DNA of 10,308 nucleotides, taken from a virus. Position numbers and translations under genes: made by a program. This document shows, piece by piece, positions 323 through 10,308 of this stretch (position 1 is its first letter; each line of letters begins with the position of its first letter). The notes under the pieces are model-generated. The model did no database searches. It worked only from the letters and a program-made list of their open reading frames with translations, and was not told where the DNA came from. The stretch lies in UHGV virus genome UHGV-0120054; one strand, written 5' to 3'.

Positions 323-820
323 ATGAAATCATTAACCCTCTTCAATCAACCAATTCGTATCGGTGAAGATGGCATGATCTGCCTCACTGATATGTGGAAA
401 GCCAGTGGTAAAAGTGAATCTGAATCGCCTTACCACTACCTGCGAAACAAGCAGACCAAAGAGTTCTTAGCCGAGCTGGAGAAAAACCACGAATCTGTGG
501 TTTTTACTGAGCGCGGTGTACACGGTGGAACATATGGCGGGAAGTTTGTTGCTTACGATTATGCGGCTTGGTTAAACCCCGGGTTCAAGTACGCGGCCTA
601 TAAAGTCCTCGATGACTACTTCACCGGAGAACTTCAGCATCGCAACAGCTTAAGTGCGCAGCTCAACATGAAATGTCATGAGTTTGACCAGAAGAAAGAC
701 ATGGCGAGCTTCTGCGGACAAGGGCTGGCAGCATGGCGCTATACGAAGCCAGTGTTGGTCGCTGAGATTAACTCCCTGGCTAACCAGTTGCAGATTACGA
801 TCCCCGGGCTTCCGGGATGA
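323..820 (+). CDS. KilA-N domain protein (possible antirepressor or DNA-binding regulator)
   Basis: 165-aa ORF. The N-terminal ~100 aa carry the KilA-N signature (LFNQPIRI…DGMICLTDMWKASGK…GTYGGKFVAYDYAAWLNPGFKYAAYKVLDDYF). Weak SD (AGGT) 7 nt upstream of the ATG. Confidence 0.8.
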   Translation: MKSLTLFNQPIRIGEDGMICLTDMWKASGKSESESPYHYLRNKQTKEFLAELEKNHESVVFTERGVHGGTYGGKFVAYDYAAWLNPGFKYAAYKVLDDYFTGELQHRNSLSAQLNMKCHEFDQKKDMASFCGQGLAAWRYTKPVLVAEINSLANQLQITIPGLPG

Positions 821-1697: not shown

Positions 1698-2249
1698 ATG
1701 GCACTCACCGACAAGCAAGAAATGTTCTGTCGCGAGTACCTCATCGATTTAAACGCCACGCAAGCGGCTATTCGGGCGGGGTACAGCGCAAAGACAGCTA
1801 ACCGTACCGCATCCGAAAACCTGTCAAAACCTGACATCAAGTTAAGAATCGCCGAACTGAAAGCGCAACGCAATGATCTTATTGGTATTAATGCAGAATA
1901 TGTACTTAATCGCCTTATTGAAATCGACCAGATGGATGTGCTCGACATTCTCCTGCAAAACGGTGAGCTAAAGCCCATTAAAGACTGGCCTAAGGTATGG
2001 CGCACAACGCTATCAGGAATGGATGTCGTGGAGATGGTATCCGCAGATAGCGCCGCACTTCTGAAGAAAATCAAATGGCCTGATAAGGTTAAAAACCTTG
2101 AGTTGCTTGGGCGTCATGTTTCTGTTCAGGCGTTTAAAGACAATGTCAAAAATGAAGTGACTGGTGCTGACGGAGGACCAGTCAGAACAGAAATTACCAA
2201 CTTAACGCCGGAGCAGGCTGCAGAGGCGTATAGAAAAATGATGGGCTAA
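1698..2249 (+). CDS. phage terminase small subunit (Terminase_2-like)
   Basis: 183-aa ORF. N-terminus [34 protein letters not shown]… matches the conserved HTH-like signature of this terminase small-subunit family. Lies immediately upstream of the large subunit. Confidence 0.8.
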
Positions 2250-2251
2250 GT

Positions 2252-3874
2252 ATGCCGTTACCATTCCCCTTCGATTTTAAACATCCTGATTACCAGATGG
2301 TTTTTGAATGGCGGATGGAACGCCTACAACGCATTCGCCAGAATCCTGAAATATTGCCTGCACTAAAACAGTTTTACCGAACCAATCCGGCTCAGTTCAT
2401 CATCGACTGGGGCATGACAACGGACCCGCGTAATATTGATTATGGCCTGCCGGTGACCATTCCGTTTTTACTCTTCCCTAAGCAGGAGGAGTGGATCCAC
2501 TGGATTATGGAACGCTGGAGTAATCGGGAGAATGGTATTACCGAAAAATCCCGTGAAATGGGGCTCAGTTGGACCGCGATCGGGCTGGCCTGCTCGCTTT
2601 GTCTCTTCAACAAAGAAATGGTTATCGGTTTCGGCTCCCGTAAAGAGGAATACGTCGACAGCACCGGTGACCCGAAGGCGCTGTTCTGGAAGGCGCGCAA
2701 GTTCGTGGAAACACTACCTGTAGAGTTTCGCGGTTCGTGGAGCGAGAAGAAGCACGCGCCATATATGCGTGTTGAGTTTCCTGAAACTGGTGCCGTTATC
2801 AAAGGCGAGGCTGGCGATAATATTGGTCGTGGTGACCGTACCACGCTTTATCTGGTTGATGAGGCTGCATTCCTTCAGCGTCCTCTGCTGATTGATGCGG
2901 CGTTGTCACAAACGACGCGTTGCCGTATCGACCTGAGTTCGGTTAACGGCATGGCGAACCCGTTCGCGCAGAAGCGTCACGGCGGGAAGATACCGGTATT
3001 CACATTCCACTGGCGGGATGATCCTCGCAAGGATGAAGAGTGGTATCGCAGGGAATGCGAGAAAATCGATAATCCGGTGGTGGTGGCACAGGAACTTGAT
3101 CTGAACTACAGCGCATCAGCGGAAGGCGTCCTGATTCCATCCGAATGGGTACAGGCTGCCGTTGATGCGCATATCAAACTGGGTATCCAGCCAACAGGCA
3201 AACGACTTGGCGCGATGGATGTCGCCGACGAAGGCAGGGACAAAAATGCCTTTTCCACCCGTCATGGCTTCCTCCTGGAGAATGTGCGGGAATGGTCCGG
3301 GGTGGGCAGCGACATTTATCAGTCCGTCGAGAAGGTCTTCGGCTTTTGCGAACAGGACAATCTTGATGAGTTTCGCTTTGACGAGGACGGGCTGGGCGCT
3401 GGCGTTCGCGGCGATGCACGCGCTATCAACGAACTGCGTAACGCTGCGCGCCGACCGTCAATACTCGCTACACCGTTTCGAGGTAGTGGCGCGGTATTTG
3501 ATCCGGATGATGAAGCTGTTCGCGGGGACAACGGGCAAGCCGCACGTCTGAACAAGGACTTCTTCGCTAACGCCAAAGCCCAGAGCTGGTGGCGGTTACG
3601 TAAACTTTTTCAGAATACCTGGCGCGCCGTGGTTGAAGGTATGGCTTACAACCCAGACGAAATCATCTCAATCAGCAGTAGCATGGCACTCAAAGATAAA
3701 CTCATCATCGAGCTTTCGCAGCCGACCTATTCCATTAATGGTGTGGGAAAAATCGTTATTGATAAACAGCCTGATGGAACCCGATCACCAAACCTTGCTG
3801 ACTCGGTGATGATCAACTATGCCCCAATGAATTCAGCCCTGAACATCTGGGAGCTGCTAGGGAGACAGGCCTGA
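2252..3874 (+). CDS. phage terminase large subunit (ATPase plus nuclease)
   Basis: 540-aa ORF. Deviant P-loop KSREMGLS (lambda gpA-like K-S-x-R-x-G-x-S, recalled from memory). Walker [12 protein letters not shown]-terminal RNase-H-like nuclease motifs [25 protein letters not shown] and [10 protein letters not shown]. Confidence 0.85.
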
Positions 3875-4392
3875 TGGCACGAAACAAGCAATCCTCTCAG
3901 CGAACGGCACAGGCCACCGCTGACGGCTACGAGAACTTCGTCGCCCGCGTTGGGATGAGCTCATTGCAGGAGCGCCGCTTACGGCTGCCGATGCGCCGGA
4001 TACTGGACATTATGCACCGCTCGGAACTCGGTAAGCCGCTGCCGGACGATTTCACGTTTGAGTTTAACCCGCTATGGCAAATGTCTGACGTTGACCGCTC
4101 AACGGTGGCCGTAAACACCACCAACGCGATCAGCACCGCGCTGGGCGACGGATTGATGACGCGTAAGGCGGCGATGACCGACCTGCGAGAAAACTCTGAC
4201 GTCACCGGCATCGGGGCATCCATTACCGACGAGGACGTAGAGAATGCCGAAGACGAAGCGCCGCCAGGCATCGGCGAACTTGGCGACAAACCGCCAGAGT
4301 CGCCAGGCGGAGATCCGATATCGAACGAGCCTACGGCAGATAGCGCGGGCGGTCGGGGATATCGTAAATGGGCGCTACGATGGTTCAAATGA
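3874..4392 (+). CDS. hypothetical protein in the position expected for the portal gene; possibly a portal remnant
   Basis: 172-aa ORF. ATG overlaps the terminase stop (TGATG at 3872-3876). Acidic C-terminal region (TDEDVENAEDEAPPG). Far too short for a portal (typically over 400 aa). The last 149 nt overlap the next gene in another frame, where that gene's frame has the higher third-position GC. Confidence 0.4.
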   Translation: MARNKQSSQRTAQATADGYENFVARVGMSSLQERRLRLPMRRILDIMHRSELGKPLPDDFTFEFNPLWQMSDVDRSTVAVNTTNAISTALGDGLMTRKAAMTDLRENSDVTGIGASITDEDVENAEDEAPPGIGELGDKPPESPGGDPISNEPTADSAGGRGYRKWALRWFK

Positions 4393-5017
4393 TAGCGTTA
4401 CCGAAATAATGGATGCGCTGGAGCGCTACAGCGAAATCATCACCCCCTGGGCGACGAAGGTTGCTGAGAACTTTACCGCCGACATTGCACGCCAGAATGA
4501 AAAGCAGTGGCGTCAGCACAGCCGGAACATCAGCGCAGAGCTGCGCAACATGGTCGACCGCGCCCCGGTAGGCCAGGTGATGAAATCCATCGTCGCCGAG
4601 CAAATTAAGTACATCAAGTCACTGCCTCTTGAGGCCGCCGATCGGGTGTATGACATTCAGAACAAGGCCATCGAGGCCGTTGTGTCTGGTGGCCGCGCTG
4701 AACCATTCGCGAAAGAGATAGCAGCGTCCGGTGACGTGTCACGCTCACGAGCGAACCTTATCGCCCGTACCGAGCTTGGACGTGCAACCGGCGCGCTGGA
4801 TCAGGCGCGTGCGCTGTCAATCGGCTCGAATGGTTATATCTGGCGTACAGCCGAAGATGGCGACGTCCGGCATTCTCATCGGGAGATGGAAGGTAAGTTT
4901 GTCGAATGGGGCAAACCTCCAACGCTTGATGGCATGACCGGTCACGCTGGCGAGCTCCCGAATTGTCGCTGTTATAAAGAAATCGTTTTTCCCAACCCTC
5001 ATTCTTATCTCGCCTGA
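4244..5017 (+). CDS. phage head morphogenesis protein, Mu F / SPP1 gp7 family
   Basis: 257-aa ORF. Hallmark C-terminal motifs LIARTELGRA … WRTAEDGDVRHSHREMEG … PNCRCY. SD GAGGA at 4231-4235, 8 nt before the ATG. The frame opens only one codon upstream (TAG 4238-4240). Alternative downstream start at 4409. Confidence 0.8.
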   Translation: MPKTKRRQASANLATNRQSRQAEIRYRTSLRQIARAVGDIVNGRYDGSNDSVTEIMDALERYSEIITPWATKVAENFTADIARQNEKQWRQHSRNISAELRNMVDRAPVGQVMKSIVAEQIKYIKSLPLEAADRVYDIQNKAIEAVVSGGRAEPFAKEIAASGDVSRSRANLIARTELGRATGALDQARALSIGSNGYIWRTAEDGDVRHSHREMEGKFVEWGKPPTLDGMTGHAGELPNCRCYKEIVFPNPHSYLA

Positions 5018-5031
5018 ATCGCAGGTAAACC

Positions 5032-6252
5032 ATGAAATATTTTTTCAATACCCGGCTGGGGGAAACCCGCTATCAGCTGGCTGACGGCTCGCTGCTGTGC
5101 AAAGACGTGCCGATAGGTCGAACGGGTAAGCAGCTCTACGGCGCTGCCGATCTGCCAAACCTCAAACCCGACAAGCTCGGTGAGATAGTCGTAACGCGTT
5201 CTCCTGAGCAGGTATTCCATCCGGCCACGCTCGCCTCATTCGAAGGGATGAGCATCACGATCCTGCATCCTGAAGATGAAAACGGGAATGTGCGGCTGGT
5301 AAATCCCGAGAACTGGAAAGAGCTTGCTGTCGGGCATCTTCAGAATGTGCGGCGCGGGACGGGTGACCAGTCTGATTTGATGCTGGCTGACCTTATCGTC
5401 AAAGACGAAAACGCCATTCAGCTTATCGAAGATGGCCTGCGTGAAGTGTCGTGCGGCTATGACGCGGAGTACGAGCAGACCGAGCCAGGTAAAGCCGAGC
5501 AGGTCGATATTACCGGAAACCATGTGGCTCTTGTCCCCAAAGGCAGAGCCGGAAATCGTTGTGCAATTGGAGACAGAGACACAATGGCAAATCAAAAGAA
5601 AAACTGGTGGAACCGCATGCGTGCAGCCATCAAGACAGGAGATGCCGACACCATGAACGAACTGGTGGAGTCGGCTCCCGCATCGGTTACAGGAGATGAG
5701 GGGGATTTGCCGCAGGGCGTTAATCTCAACATCAACCTGTCCCCGCAGCAACCACTACCGGACAAAGCACCAGAGATGGGTGGAGGTCCAACCGGCGACA
5801 GTGATGATGACCTCAAAACATTACTGAAAGCCCTGCTGGCTAAGCTGGAAGGAAATGCGACGGGCGATAACGACAATAATCCTGACGATAATCCGACCGG
5901 TGACGGCGAGGACTATGAAGAGGAAACCACGATTACTGGTGACTCAGCCTGGCGTGCCGAAGTTATCGTTCCGGGTATCGATCTGAGCCGTAAGATGAAA
6001 CCGACCGCGTTCAAACGCGAGGTTCTGGCTTCTGCTGACAAAACGCTGGTTCGCCAGATAGTCGGTGATGCGGATATCCGCAAATTACCGAAACAATCGG
6101 TCAACATGGCGTTTAATGCCGTGTCAGAGATTGCCAAAGGGCGAAACACCCGTACCACCATGGGCGATGCACAACGCCAAAATATGGGCATGACCAGCAT
6201 CGCTTCCCTGAACAAACAAAACGCCGAATTCTGGTCTAACCGCAAAGGATAA
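5032..6252 (+). CDS. putative head scaffold or maturation protein (DUF2213-like)
   Basis: 406-aa ORF directly after the MuF gene. Conserved N-terminal half followed by a long acidic low-complexity segment (GDSDDDLK…GDNDNNPDDNPTGDGEDYEEE). Family assignment is from memory of MuF/DUF2213/capsid head modules. Confidence 0.55.
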   Translation: MKYFFNTRLGETRYQLADGSLLCKDVPIGRTGKQLYGAADLPNLKPDKLGEIVVTRSPEQVFHPATLASFEGMSITILHPEDENGNVRLVNPENWKELAVGHLQNVRRGTGDQSDLMLADLIVKDENAIQLIEDGLREVSCGYDAEYEQTEPGKAEQVDITGNHVALVPKGRAGNRCAIGDRDTMANQKKNWWNRMRAAIKTGDADTMNELVESAPASVTGDEGDLPQGVNLNINLSPQQPLPDKAPEMGGGPTGDSDDDLKTLLKALLAKLEGNATGDNDNNPDDNPTGDGEDYEEETTITGDSAWRAEVIVPGIDLSRKMKPTAFKREVLASADKTLVRQIVGDADIRKLPKQSVNMAFNAVSEIAKGRNTRTTMGDAQRQNMGMTSIASLNKQNAEFWSNRKG

Positions 6253-6256
6253 TCCA

Positions 6257-6760
6257 ATGACTGCATATCTGTACCGGATGCCTGTTGGCATTGCCGGGGC
6301 TGTCTCTCGCCCGCAGGACTTAACCGTCGAACCGGTGGTCCTTAAATCCGATAACGCCTTCGCTGCCTATGGGCTGGCTGGTAAATACGATGCTGACGGT
6401 TTTTTCGTACCGCTGGCAGATGGTGATACCGCAGACAAGGTGAAGGGGATCTACGTGCGCCCTTATCCGACCACGTCGCAGCCGGACATGGTTCGCCAGG
6501 TGGGGAGTGGCAAGAACTTCCCGGGAGACGCCATGAAGCGTGGCTACGTGACCGTTAATCTCGGTTCTGATTTTGATGCCAGCACCATCAAAAAAGGCGA
6601 CCCGGTATACGTTGTCGTCTCCGCTGATGAATCCATCAAAGTGCCGCTGGGTGGATTCATGTCCACGTCAGTCAGTGGCAAAAATGTGGTGCTGACCAAC
6701 GCTGAATTCACAGGTGCCGGTGATGCTAACGGCAATGCAGAAATTTCCTGGAAGATTTAA
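6257..6760 (+). CDS. putative small head structural or decoration protein
   Basis: 167-aa ORF with SD AGGA, lying between the scaffold-like gene and the capsid gene. Gly/Val-rich, beta-rich-looking sequence. Confidence 0.45.
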   Translation: MTAYLYRMPVGIAGAVSRPQDLTVEPVVLKSDNAFAAYGLAGKYDADGFFVPLADGDTADKVKGIYVRPYPTTSQPDMVRQVGSGKNFPGDAMKRGYVTVNLGSDFDASTIKKGDPVYVVVSADESIKVPLGGFMSTSVSGKNVVLTNAEFTGAGDANGNAEISWKI

Positions 6761-6771
6761 GGAACAGACGA

Positions 6772-7584
6772 ATGATTACTTTTGATCAGGCAACCGTTGA
6801 CAGCTCTGGTGCCTTTCTCATCGGGGAGCTGGAGCGACTCGACCAGACGCTGAACCTGCCACTGGTGGGGTACACCTGGACCCGCGATATTCAGTTGCGT
6901 GAAGATGTCTCCATCGCAGATGACATTTCCAGCTGGACGAATACCAGCTTCGCCGCTGCGGGTACTGGCGCAAATCCGAATGGCAAAAACTGGGTAGGCA
7001 AAGACTCAACCGCTATTGCTGGCGTGAACGTGGATATCGGCAAATCCGGTAACCCGCTGAACCTGTGGGGGATGGAGCTTGGCTGGACGGTCATAGAATT
7101 GCAGGCTGCTCAGCAGGTCGGACGCCCGATTGATACGCAGAAGTATGACGGGATGCAACTGAAATGGCAGATGGATAACGATGAACAGGTGTATGTTGGC
7201 GATTCCGCATTAAACCTGAAAGGCCTTGTTACCCTGAACGGTGTTCCTGTCAACAACGCTGCCAAAACGTGGGCAACCTCAACACCGGACGAAATCCGCG
7301 CAAGCATTAACCAGGTGCTGTCTGATGCGTGGGCCGCTTCCGGTTACTCTGTGGTTCCGCGTGATTTGCTGATCCCACCTGAGCAGTTTGCTCTGTTGTC
7401 CAGCATCATCGTTTCATCTGCGGGTAACCAGTCCCTGTTGACGTACCTTCAGACCAACACCATCAGCTATCACCAGAACGGTGTTCCGCTGAATATCCGC
7501 GCGGTTAAATGGCTGAAAGGCCGTGGTGTGGGGAATAAGGATCGCATGGTTGCGTACACCAACGATAAAAAATACGTCCGCTAA
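6772..7584 (+). CDS. major capsid protein (DUF2184-like)
   Basis: 270-aa ORF with a strong SD (AAGGAA). Position after the scaffold and small head protein genes is that of a major capsid gene. Sequence is consistent with capsid proteins of this head-module type, recalled from memory. Confidence 0.6.
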   Translation: MITFDQATVDSSGAFLIGELERLDQTLNLPLVGYTWTRDIQLREDVSIADDISSWTNTSFAAAGTGANPNGKNWVGKDSTAIAGVNVDIGKSGNPLNLWGMELGWTVIELQAAQQVGRPIDTQKYDGMQLKWQMDNDEQVYVGDSALNLKGLVTLNGVPVNNAAKTWATSTPDEIRASINQVLSDAWAASGYSVVPRDLLIPPEQFALLSSIIVSSAGNQSLLTYLQTNTISYHQNGVPLNIRAVKWLKGRGVGNKDRMVAYTNDKKYVR

Positions 7585-8456
7585 CCGGTACGGCAGGCAC
7601 GACTATCTCGAATGGTTCTGCACGGGATAAAAACGGCATTATCTGGAATTTTCCAGCGAGTGTAGCGATCGGCGTTGATGGTACTGTGCTGGTGACGGCC
7701 ACATGTGCGAATAGCGGTTCGGTTGCGGCGCTGGCCGGGACTATTACCACTATCAACACCCCGACCCGAGGTTGGGTGTCGGTAACCAATCCTGCTGCAG
7801 CCACTGTGGGCACTCCGGCAGAAACTGATGCGGAGTTACGTATCCGCCAGTCGCAAAGTGTTGCGTTGCCATCAATAACCCCATTTGAAGCACTGGATGG
7901 TGCTGTTTCTAATGTTACCGGTGTAACCCGCCACAAACTCTATGAAAACGATACTGGTTCGGAGGACGGTAACGGGTTACCGCCACACTCTGTTGCTGTA
8001 ATTGTGGATGGCGGTGATGTGACGGATATTGCTCAGGCTATCAGAGGAAATAAAGGCCAGGGGACAGCCACTCACGGTACAACATCCGTTACGGTTCCGG
8101 ATAAATACGGCAATCCCCATGTAATCAAATTCTCGCGTTCCAGTGATGTGCCTGTTTATGCCCGGATTAAATTAAAAGTTTTTACGGGTTATACCTCACA
8201 GATAGGGCAGCAGATCCAGCAGGCTATTTCCGACTATATCAATAGTCTGACGATTGGTGATTCGGTCCTTTTAAGTCGCATTTACTCACCGGCGAATCTT
8301 GGCGTGGTGAGTGGCGGGAATGCACGCTATTACGATATTCAGGAACTGACGATTGGGAAATCCCCGGGGGCTTTGTCGTCATCAAACATTGATATCAGAT
8401 ACAACGAATCTGCGTCCTGTACCCCGGAAAATATCGTTATAACGGTGGAGTCATGA
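7569..8456 (+). pseudogene. baseplate J-like (gp47 / P2 gpJ family) gene, 5'-truncated
   Basis: Open frame of 296 codons starting inside the end of the capsid gene and containing no ATG at all. First possible start is GTG at 7686 with no convincing SD. Conserved J-family motif AETDAELRIRQSQS. No sheath, tube, tape-measure or other baseplate genes lie between capsid and this frame. Confidence 0.7.
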
Positions 8457-9133
8457 GCAAATACACCGAACTAATCACGAACTACCACGTCACCAAACCT
8501 AAATTTCTTGCACATGTTGATCTGATGACCCGGCCGCTTATTGATGTTGCGGCTGCCACCAGAGGGCTGATTACTGCATTTGATATTGACTCTGCGGTTG
8601 GTGTGCAACTTGACATTCTGGGATTGTGGATCGGGCGTAGCCGTGTTGTCAGCCAGCCTATCTCAGGTGTCTATTTCAGCTGGGATACCGACGGGCTTGG
8701 ATATGATCAGGGGGTATGGCAGGGGCCATATGATCCTGATTCCGGATACATGTATCTCAGCGATGAAACTTATCGTGTCATTCTTAAAGCGAAGATTGCG
8801 ATTAATAACTGGGACGGACGGAATGATTCGCTTCCAGCAATTCTTGACGCTGCAACAGCAGGATCCGGGCTGCGAATGCAGATAGTCGATAACCAGGACA
8901 TGACGATATCGGTCTGGGTCTTTCCTGATACTGATATTTCAGATGTATCGCGTGAGTTAATTGCGGCAATTAAACAGGGGTATCTCACAGTAAAAGCCGC
9001 CGGGGTGTGGGCAGGTGGCATTGAAACACCTTCGGTGGAAACCCCATCGGAAGGCTCAAATTTTTTTGGTTTTGATATGGATAATGAATTCATCAGTGGT
9101 TTTGATGTAGGAGCATGGGGAGTATTACTCTGA
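8453..9133 (+). CDS. gpI-like baseplate or tail protein (DUF2612-like)
   Basis: 226-aa ORF. ATG overlaps the J-like stop (ATGA at 8453-8456). Position between baseplate J and the tail fibre matches P2 gpI / Mu gp48 / e14 YmfQ-type proteins. Confidence 0.55.
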
Positions 9134-9933
9134 TGGCGAAAAATGACTTTAAAGCGTTTGCAACGGATCGAAATGCCAATGTTATGTCGCAGGAGGAATG
9201 GGAAGCGTTGCCTGCGCTTTTATCCGGATTTACAGCAGGGAAAGCATCCAGTGCGCAAGTCAATAAGGTTATTCGGCAGGCCAGCTTTATTACTGCAGCT
9301 CTGGCCCAGTTTGTAAGTGACAAAACGCAACGGGATGTGCTTGATAATGGTGATCTGCCCGGTTTTGTTGAATTGCTGGGATCGGGGTTTGCTGTTGAAT
9401 ACCTGAGTCGCAAGAATCCGTTTGGCGATATCAAATCGGATGGCACGGTGAAAACGGCTCTCGAAAACCTTGGTTTGGGAGAAGGCTCTGCATTACCTGT
9501 TGGTGTGCCTGTTCCATGGCCTTCAGCCACACCGCCAACAGGCTGGCTGAAATGCAACGGTGCGGCTTTTTCTTCTGAAAAGTACCCAAATCTGGCAAAG
9601 GTTTACCCAACGTTAAAATTACCTGATTTACGCGGTGAGTTTATCCGTGGTTGGGATGATGGGCGAGGTGTGGATGCGGGAAGGGTCATCTTAAGCATAC
9701 AGGGGTGGTTAACAGGAAGTCATTATCATAATATTCGGTCATGGGACGCGTGGGATAACACGGTATTGGTGCCAAATGACAGAGGGGGGGATAGTCTGTT
9801 GTCTACAGATAACGCCGTCCAAGAAGGAGCGATTAATGGTAAATTTACCAGTCAATACAGAACGGAGTTTTCAGGGGGAAATGAAACCCGCCCACGTAAC
9901 ATCGCCTTCAATTATATTGTGAGAGCTGCATAA
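9133..9933 (+). CDS. tail fibre protein with a C-terminal phage tail-collar domain
   Basis: Open frame runs from ATG 9115, but ATG 9133 is the better start: it overlaps the upstream stop (TGATG) and has GGGGAG 10 nt upstream. Tail-collar signature [33 protein letters not shown]…[17 protein letters not shown]. Confidence 0.8.
9458..9483. other. Gin/Hin/Cin/Pin-type serine-invertase crossover site inside the tail-fibre gene
   Basis: CTCTCGAAAACC-TT-GGTTTGGGAGAA: an imperfect dyad with the AAACC-NN-GGTTT core. Matches hixL/gixL-type sites at about 10 of 12 positions per half-site (consensus quoted from memory). Falls at tail-fibre codons ~109-117 (ALENLGLGE). Confidence 0.6.
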
Positions 9934-10308
9934 TGAATAACGCGATATTAAATAATGACCTTATTGCCGTACAGGCGGGAAACGTCATCGTTTATAACTA
10001 TGATGGTGAGACGCGGGAATATATTTCCGAATCAACTGAATATCTTGCTGTGGGTGTTGGTATTCCGGCATGTTCCTGTTTAGAGGCTCCTGGTACACAT
10101 AAGGATGGTTATTCAATTTGCCGCTCTGTGGATTTAAATTCATGGGAATATGTGCCGGACCATCGCGGTGAAATTGTCTTTAGCACCGAAACAGGAGAAT
10201 CAAAAGAAATCACAGCACCGGGTGATTACCCTGATAATACAACCACTCTCGCACCGTTAACGCCATACGATAAATGGGATGGTGAGAAATGGGTGACAGA
10301 TACTGAGA
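9933..10308 (+). CDS. tail fibre assembly protein (Tfa, Caudo_TAP family), 3'-partial
   Basis: ATG at 9933 overlaps the tail-fibre stop (TAATG). The frame is open for 125 codons to the window end, so it is absent from the ORF track. Tfa-like motifs DHRGEIVF and KWDGEKWV. Confidence 0.8.
   Translation, partial: MNNAILNNDLIAVQAGNVIVYNYDGETREYISESTEYLAVGVGIPACSCLEAPGTHKDGYSICRSVDLNSWEYVPDHRGEIVFSTETGESKEITAPGDYPDNTTTLAPLTPYDKWDGEKWVTDTE

Follow-up and report, generated by a model that had tools for sequence, protein, structure and literature searches.

A deletion scar between the capsid and baseplate J genes of a cryptic SEN34-like prophage of Escherichia coli

Gene order and the capsid-J junction

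The window, i.e. the whole stretch of 10,308 nucleotides of the virus genome UHGV-0120054 that was analysed, carries a phage late operon on its plus strand, as judged from the ORF listing and Pfam searches. By exact protein look-up, the window corresponds to a metagenome contig, NODE_2904 of ENA ERZ651857. Its features are as follows:

323-820, plus strand: KilA-N domain gene (Pfam)
1698-2249, plus strand: terminase small subunit gene
2252-3874, plus strand: terminase large subunit (TerL) gene according to RefSeq, 540 aa
3874-4392, plus strand: portal remnant (DUF1073/Phage_portal_3; Pfam), 172 aa
4409-5017, plus strand: MuF-like head morphogenesis gene, 202 aa (257 aa as the longest ORF, from 4244)
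5032-6252, plus strand: DUF2213 gene (Pfam)
6257-6760, plus strand: cement protein gene
6772-7584, plus strand: major capsid gene (DUF2184/PF09950; Pfam Major_capside), 3'-truncated, codons 1-270 of 313
7582-7587, no strand: deletion junction, from the parent sequences, a three-way alignment and the BLAST breakpoints
7581-8456, plus strand: baseplate J/gp47 gene (Pfam Baseplate_J), 5'-truncated, codons 109-399 of 399, in a frame open from 7569
7686-8456, plus strand: GTG-started ORF of 256 aa reported by gene callers, corresponding to J residues 144-399
8453-9133, plus strand: DUF2612 (baseplate wedge 1) gene, intact (Pfam DUF2612, E = 1.8e-46)
9115-9933, plus strand: tail fibre gene with a Collar domain (Pfam Collar match)
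9933-10307: partial ORF after the tail fibre gene

The 540-aa protein annotated as TerL (2252-3874) gave no Pfam-A match at E <= 0.01. Gene calls differ between data sources in the portal region: the 172-aa portal remnant is called in ENA contigs only, while in NCBI assemblies it is uncalled and the MuF-like protein is given as 257 aa, compared with 202 aa elsewhere and in the intact relatives. The longer form (4244-5017), which was also found in other, differently decayed relatives, is probably an artefact of the portal deletion described below. At the left end, the KilA-N/ORF11CD3 gene and the 85-aa gene that comes after it (323-1074) encode proteins found in identical form in 16,610 blocks of the assembly collection. 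Since unrelated lambda-type prophages (L012-L015) also have this pair, placed between their lysis and terminase genes, the two genes look like a widely exchanged moron cassette.

The capsid ORF shows a strong match to PF09950 (245.6 bits), but the match covers only profile positions 4-207 of 251, compared with 4-251 in a full-length relative. According to the protein alignment, residues 1-270 of 313 are present and 99-100 % identical to those of the relatives, including 100 % identity to the E2348/69 protein, while the 43 C-terminal codons are gone. The preliminary description had let the capsid gene end at 7584; the ORF does stop there, but this is not its natural end, which lies 43 codons further on in the 313-aa protein.

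Comparison with the parent sequences of the Ecol_224 prophage resolves the join at base level. In the window, capsid codon 270 is joined straight to J codon 109, i.e. nucleotide 812 in the capsid gene (942 nt in full) to nucleotide 326 in the J gene (1200 nt in full), with capsid-gene sequence to the left of the junction and sequence from inside J to its right. The capsid-side parent reads ...AAATACGTGCGC-TA-TCCGCTGG..., the parent inside J reads ...CCTTCTGT-TA-ACCGGTACGG..., and the window reads ...AAATACGTCCGC-TA-ACCGGTACGG... across the junction. Both parents thus share a 2-bp exact microhomology, the TA at 7582-7583 (junction CGC-TA-ACCGG), within the hexamer TA(T/A)CCG, of which the window (TAACCG) and the capsid side (TATCCG) have five of six positions in common. 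Since the fusion of the two genes does not keep the reading frame, the capsid frame at once meets a TAA stop (7582-7584) made by the junction itself, the parent codon 271 being changed from TAT (Tyr271) to TAA. The BLAST breakpoints agree, with the left match ending at window position 7587 and the right match starting at 7582, and a search with the whole window gave the same break. The junction had previously been placed at about 7585-7600; from the parent sequences and the alignment it lies a few bases further left, at 7582-7584.

No longer in-register direct repeat was found at the two endpoints, and the longest word shared in the surrounding 200 nt has 8 nt and is off register. A deletion mediated by an insertion sequence (IS) was considered and rejected, as the left and right matches abut and overlap, with no IS, inserted or foreign DNA at the join. 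Across the junction runs an antisense ORF of 143 aa with a TTG start (7505-7936, minus strand), which is unsupported, overlaps capsid and J coding sequence along its full length and is probably spurious.

To the right of the junction, the frame 7569-8456 comprises 296 codons including the stop (295 sense codons, not one of them Met) and belongs to the Baseplate_J family (PF04865; 45.8 bits against a cut-off of 21.1). Its first 13 bases (7569-7581) are capsid 3' sequence read in another frame, which happens to be open. Residues 109-399 are kept at 98 % identity to the 399-aa J proteins of Ecol_224 and E89, while residues 1-108 are gone; the profile coverage falls accordingly from 4-252 in the full-length protein to 30-252 of 255 in the remnant and to 67-252 in the GTG-started ORF. 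The window thus has no complete J gene with an intrinsic start codon: the frame lacks ATG altogether, and the GTG at 7686, which corresponds to residue 144, is the first ATG, GTG or TTG codon of the frame, preceded by CGATCGGCGTTGATGGTACT, in which no AGGAGG-like Shine-Dalgarno sequence is present. Much of what had been proposed for this frame is therefore borne out by the ORF reading, Pfam and the alignment, i.e. that it is open from 7569 for 296 codons lacking ATG, that GTG 7686, with its poor Shine-Dalgarno sequence, is the sole candidate start, and that J is 5'-truncated, namely by 108 residues relative to the full-length, ATG-started protein of 399 aa. The alternative raised at the same time, i.e. 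that full-length J homologues also have 256-296 aa and a GTG start, fails, as the J proteins of the relatives have 399 aa and start with ATG. The lack of ATG is, however, not independent evidence of truncation, because residues 109-399 of full-length J proteins contain no Met either, or one in some alleles.

A scan of 7300-8000 revealed no promoter-like site and one terminator-like site, which is within chance expectation. With no start codon, no Shine-Dalgarno sequence and no promoter-like site nearby, the J remnant would not be translated, and the GTG-started ORF 7686-8456, given its weak ribosome-binding context, is probably not a real gene product. A short part of the remnant, 7588-7668 (81 bp, approximately residues 111-138), matches the Ecol_224, E89 and FJ_Ec_21 alleles and gave no blastn alignment to the E2348/69 allele, from which it differs by a clustered block of substitutions in the protein alignment; because of this clustering, it can be read as a mosaic segment within J.

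The DUF2612 gene next to J is found in synteny in all relatives. Its start codon, ATG, overlaps the stop codon of J (ATGA) and is preceded by the Shine-Dalgarno sequence GGTGGAG. Further downstream, the DNA match to the E2348/69 prophage ends at window position 9474, inside the tail fibre gene; the distal fibre and the partial ORF 9933-10307 apparently represent a different allele from that of E2348/69, in line with the usual mosaicism of fibre tips. In a longer copy of the locus (L005), the fibre genes are followed by an acyltransferase gene of the O-antigen-modifying type. In O157:H7 strains (hits H61-H67), an annotated 'phage replication protein' abuts the last 250 bp of the DUF2612 gene.

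Intact relatives and the extent of gene loss

The syntenic order terS, terL, DUF1073 portal, MuF-like, DUF2213, cement, DUF2184 capsid, J, DUF2612 and fibre gene is present in the window, and the same order and families of structural genes are found in the phages SEN34, vB_EcoM-606R2, -689R2, -611R5 and -683R1, with head-gene DNA identities to the window from 83.5 % (SEN34) to 96.8 % (vB_EcoM phages). In contrast to the window, these phages are complete and produce particles, have full-length capsid (313 aa), J (399 aa) and portal (488 aa) proteins, and possess 17 genes between capsid and J that are absent here. SEN34 combines myovirus morphology with lambdoid regulation (PMC5261728) and is assigned to the genus Brunovirus in its record. 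The initial comparison with Mu, P2 and e14 was thus a loose one, the true relatives being SEN34-like lambdoid myoviruses.

The intact argW/intS prophages of E. coli Ecol_224 (NZ_CP018948) and EPEC E2348/69 (NC_011601) show 97-99.5 % identity to the window to the left and to the right of the junction, and the two parent sequences of the join can be read from them. Unlike the window, they possess the 10.8-11.5 kb between the endpoints, the 948 bp of the portal gene and a full lambdoid region for immunity, replication and lysis. In the prophages of Ecol_224 and E2348/69 as well as in vB_EcoM-606R2 and SEN34, the capsid gene (313 aa) is followed by 17-18 genes and then by J (399 aa, starting with ATG). 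The deleted stretch amounts to 10,763 bp in the coordinates of the Ecol_224 prophage, and the interval derived from gene coordinates is approximately 10.7 kb in vB_EcoM-606R2, 11.1 kb in SEN34 and 11.5 kb in E2348/69. The preliminary description, which had proposed a large deletion of 8-12 kb that removed the tail module, is therefore supported in both kind and size by the 10,763 bp and 17-18 genes of the intact relatives.

The lost genes are those for head-tail connectors, neck terminator, sheath, tube, tail chaperone, tape measure, hub and plug, spike and a gp25-like wedge protein. In this interval, the SEN34 record names tail completion (Neck1), head-tail adaptor, sheath, chaperone, tape measure, hub, spike and wedge subunit proteins, and Pfam hits on relatives further include a tail terminator, a sheath of the E217 gp31 type, a tube of the PhiTE type, a Dit-like protein, an initiator of the sheath and an Apex spike. 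Neither the ORFs nor Pfam revealed a neck, sheath, tube or tape-measure gene between capsid and J in the window, where the complete contractile-tail module (sheath, tube, chaperone, tape measure, hub, spike) is thus missing. The extended flanks available from longer copies (up to 13.5 kb readable) contained no tail genes elsewhere in the element; within these flanks, the other explanation considered at the outset, i.e. tail genes in a non-canonical order, fails. The element in the window is a descendant of the SEN34-like (Brunovirus-type) family, and not a functional member of it.

In E. coli, the parent phage type lies between dsdC and argW and has the integrase IntS (relatives E2348/69, E89 and Ecol_224). 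The window and its longer copies stop short of an integrase gene, the furthest reaching copy (L005) extending to the acyltransferase gene; the acyltransferase gene directly precedes intS in E89 and the integrase gene in SEN34. The relic itself may be located at an argW/intS-type site.

The capsid-J junction is not the only lesion. The portal gene has undergone a 948-bp in-frame internal deletion with a junction at approximately 3953-3956, as seen from BLAST offsets and the alignment of the junction, and a short GGG(A)T microhomology is found at the join. The remnant has 172 aa compared with 481-488 aa, 316 internal codons being gone, and covers profile positions 299-355 of 357 in Pfam, compared with 7-355 in a full-length relative. 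This is a second, independent deletion in the element. Upstream of the window, longer copies show a minus-strand anti-RecBCD (Abc2-like) gene at approximately 340 bp from a 5'-truncated Rz gene (approximately 2589-2950 in L004 and 3096-3460 in L016), with no immunity, replication, holin or endolysin genes in between. The region of the intact relatives that comprises immunity, replication, nin, the antiterminator Q, the late promoter, holin and endolysin thus appears to be gone. Intact relatives have these genes upstream of Rz, so that their absence here suggests a third large deletion. Since Q and the late-promoter region appear to be deleted, late transcription of the relic would be weak. With its tail module deleted, its portal gutted and its capsid truncated, the element is a cryptic (defective) prophage, which, as far as its gene content allows us to judge, could form neither a tail nor a head.

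Relics of the same phage family at dsdC-argW (E. coli E89, L017, L019 and L020) likewise show multiple internal deletions that have left gene fragments, but their endpoints differ from those of the window and are independent. E89 and L019 retain a full J and lack the capsid gene and most genes of the tail, L020 has kept tail genes and lost the head genes, and L017 has no terminase and portal genes. A comparable arrangement exists in the cryptic prophage e14 of E. coli K-12, where the baseplate-J pseudogene jayE adjoins the portal pseudogene beeE, followed by ymfQ/DUF2612 and stfP. This is the same kind of scar, i.e. a J fragment followed by DUF2612 and tail fibre genes with the tail module gone, but e14 is another element and occupies another locus. 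Among the matches listed in the DNA search, which extended down to approximately 66 % identity, none was annotated as e14 or jayE, so that any relationship to e14 would exist at the protein level only.

Alternative readings and the distribution of the junction

While the deletion itself may be real, the cassette that it left behind (truncated capsid, J fragment, DUF2612, fibre and acyltransferase genes) could have been kept by selection, and might serve related phages as a recombination reservoir for host range or poison the assembly of superinfecting relatives. The ORFs downstream of the junction are intact, the Shine-Dalgarno sequence of the DUF2612 gene is good, the acyltransferase gene found after the fibre genes in L005 is of the O-antigen-modifying type, and the relic is present in many samples. 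Intact ORFs are, however, expected anyway after a recent deletion, and the copies are 100 % identical over 3 kb, leaving no divergence from which selection could be read; nor is there a promoter-like site near the junction, and the region of Q and the late promoter appears to be gone in the longer copies, as indicated by the proximity of the anti-RecBCD gene to the truncated Rz gene. We therefore consider retention of the cassette by selection quite improbable. The same low probability applies to the specific functions that may be imagined, i.e. that the capsid lacking 43 residues, the portal lacking 316 residues and possibly the J fragment started at GTG 7686 act as dominant-negative decoys, or that J'-DUF2612-fibre is a selected donor of host range. 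If true, such a decoy or donor role would explain the persistence of the exact relic in a widespread E. coli clone.

A tail-less, capsid-forming satellite resembling the cf-PICIs, which would form its own heads and use the tails of a helper, would lack tail genes by design, and in the window the tail genes are indeed absent while the ORFs for the small and large terminase subunits, the MuF-like, DUF2213 and cement proteins are intact. Such a satellite would need an intact portal and capsid, whereas here the portal is devoid of 316 internal codons and the capsid of its last 43, and because both are truncated, autonomous heads could not be formed. Moreover, the genes that remain share 97-100 % identity with their counterparts in complete phages, which argues for a recent loss and not for a separate lineage, baseplate and tail fibre remnants persist downstream, and the available flanks contain lambdoid early genes and no integrase, regulator or primase module of the PICI type. 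This leaves the satellite reading with a negligible probability.

A megablast search with positions 6700-8500 against 5,426 complete E. coli genomes from RefSeq gave matches in 352 genomes, in which the left and right parts were always separate; the joined capsid-J junction was found in none of the 5,426 (0/5,426). The recurrence of the break at precisely this point in several hundred genomes shows that the pattern is not due to chance. An exact 37-mer across the junction was likewise found in none of the GTDB species-representative genomes; the carrier of the relic is a non-representative E. coli strain. The exact 270-aa capsid product is present in 36 blocks of the assembly collection, and NCBI lists it as an E. 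coli protein. The six loci that were compared come from different samples and pipelines, i.e. human gut metagenomes (ENA), two NCBI isolate assemblies and one Logan assembly. That the join is a chimeric assembly of two parts of one intact prophage, as might be suspected in a metagenome contig with a stated coverage of approximately 4.6x, is hardly conceivable when the same junction recurs in these six independent assemblies with 3000 of 3000 surrounding bases identical, and the exact truncated protein is encoded on 19 contigs of up to 256 kb. Because of this complete identity of the junction and its 3-kb flanks in six independent assemblies, the junction is a genuine deletion, which is clonal and inherited vertically in one E. 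coli clone.

Origin and meaning of the scar

Taking together the endpoints, truncations, missing genes and clonality that were observed, we are confident that the junction is the scar of one illegitimate deletion of approximately 10.8 kb in a SEN34-like E. coli prophage, by which the neck, the tail and most of the baseplate were lost and the capsid and J genes were cut. The deletion may have arisen by an illegitimate event of the short-homology, RecA-independent type at the shared TA dinucleotide, with replication slippage or end joining at short homology as candidate routes. RecA-independent illegitimate recombination would thus be the mechanism of the break, while the 2-bp overlap is too short to discriminate between the routes. 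A single event of this kind would account for the loss of 17-18 genes, for a capsid product that is 43 aa short and for J residues 109-399 being left with neither start codon nor promoter; together with the gutted portal and the loss upstream, it would have resulted in a cryptic prophage that is passed on vertically in one E. coli clone.

The degeneration of grounded prophages by deletion is well described (PMC6379469). Since differently deleted relics of the same phage type are present in other E. coli strains, deletional decay is routine for this prophage family. The scar is therefore an ordinary feature of an already well-understood type, i.e. a deletion scar in a cryptic prophage, and, beside the relics of this prophage type that carry other deletions, it provides a clean, base-resolved example of decay by short-homology deletion. 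Judged by its gene content, the element would not be an inducible phage.

The significance lies mainly in annotation and in the use of the junction as a clonal marker. For this clone, public records list a 'DUF2184 protein' of 270 aa and a 'baseplate J' protein of 256 or 294 aa, both of which are fragments of pseudogenes. The exact sequence across the junction, AAATACGTCCGCTAACCGGTACGG, could be used as a marker specific to the clone.
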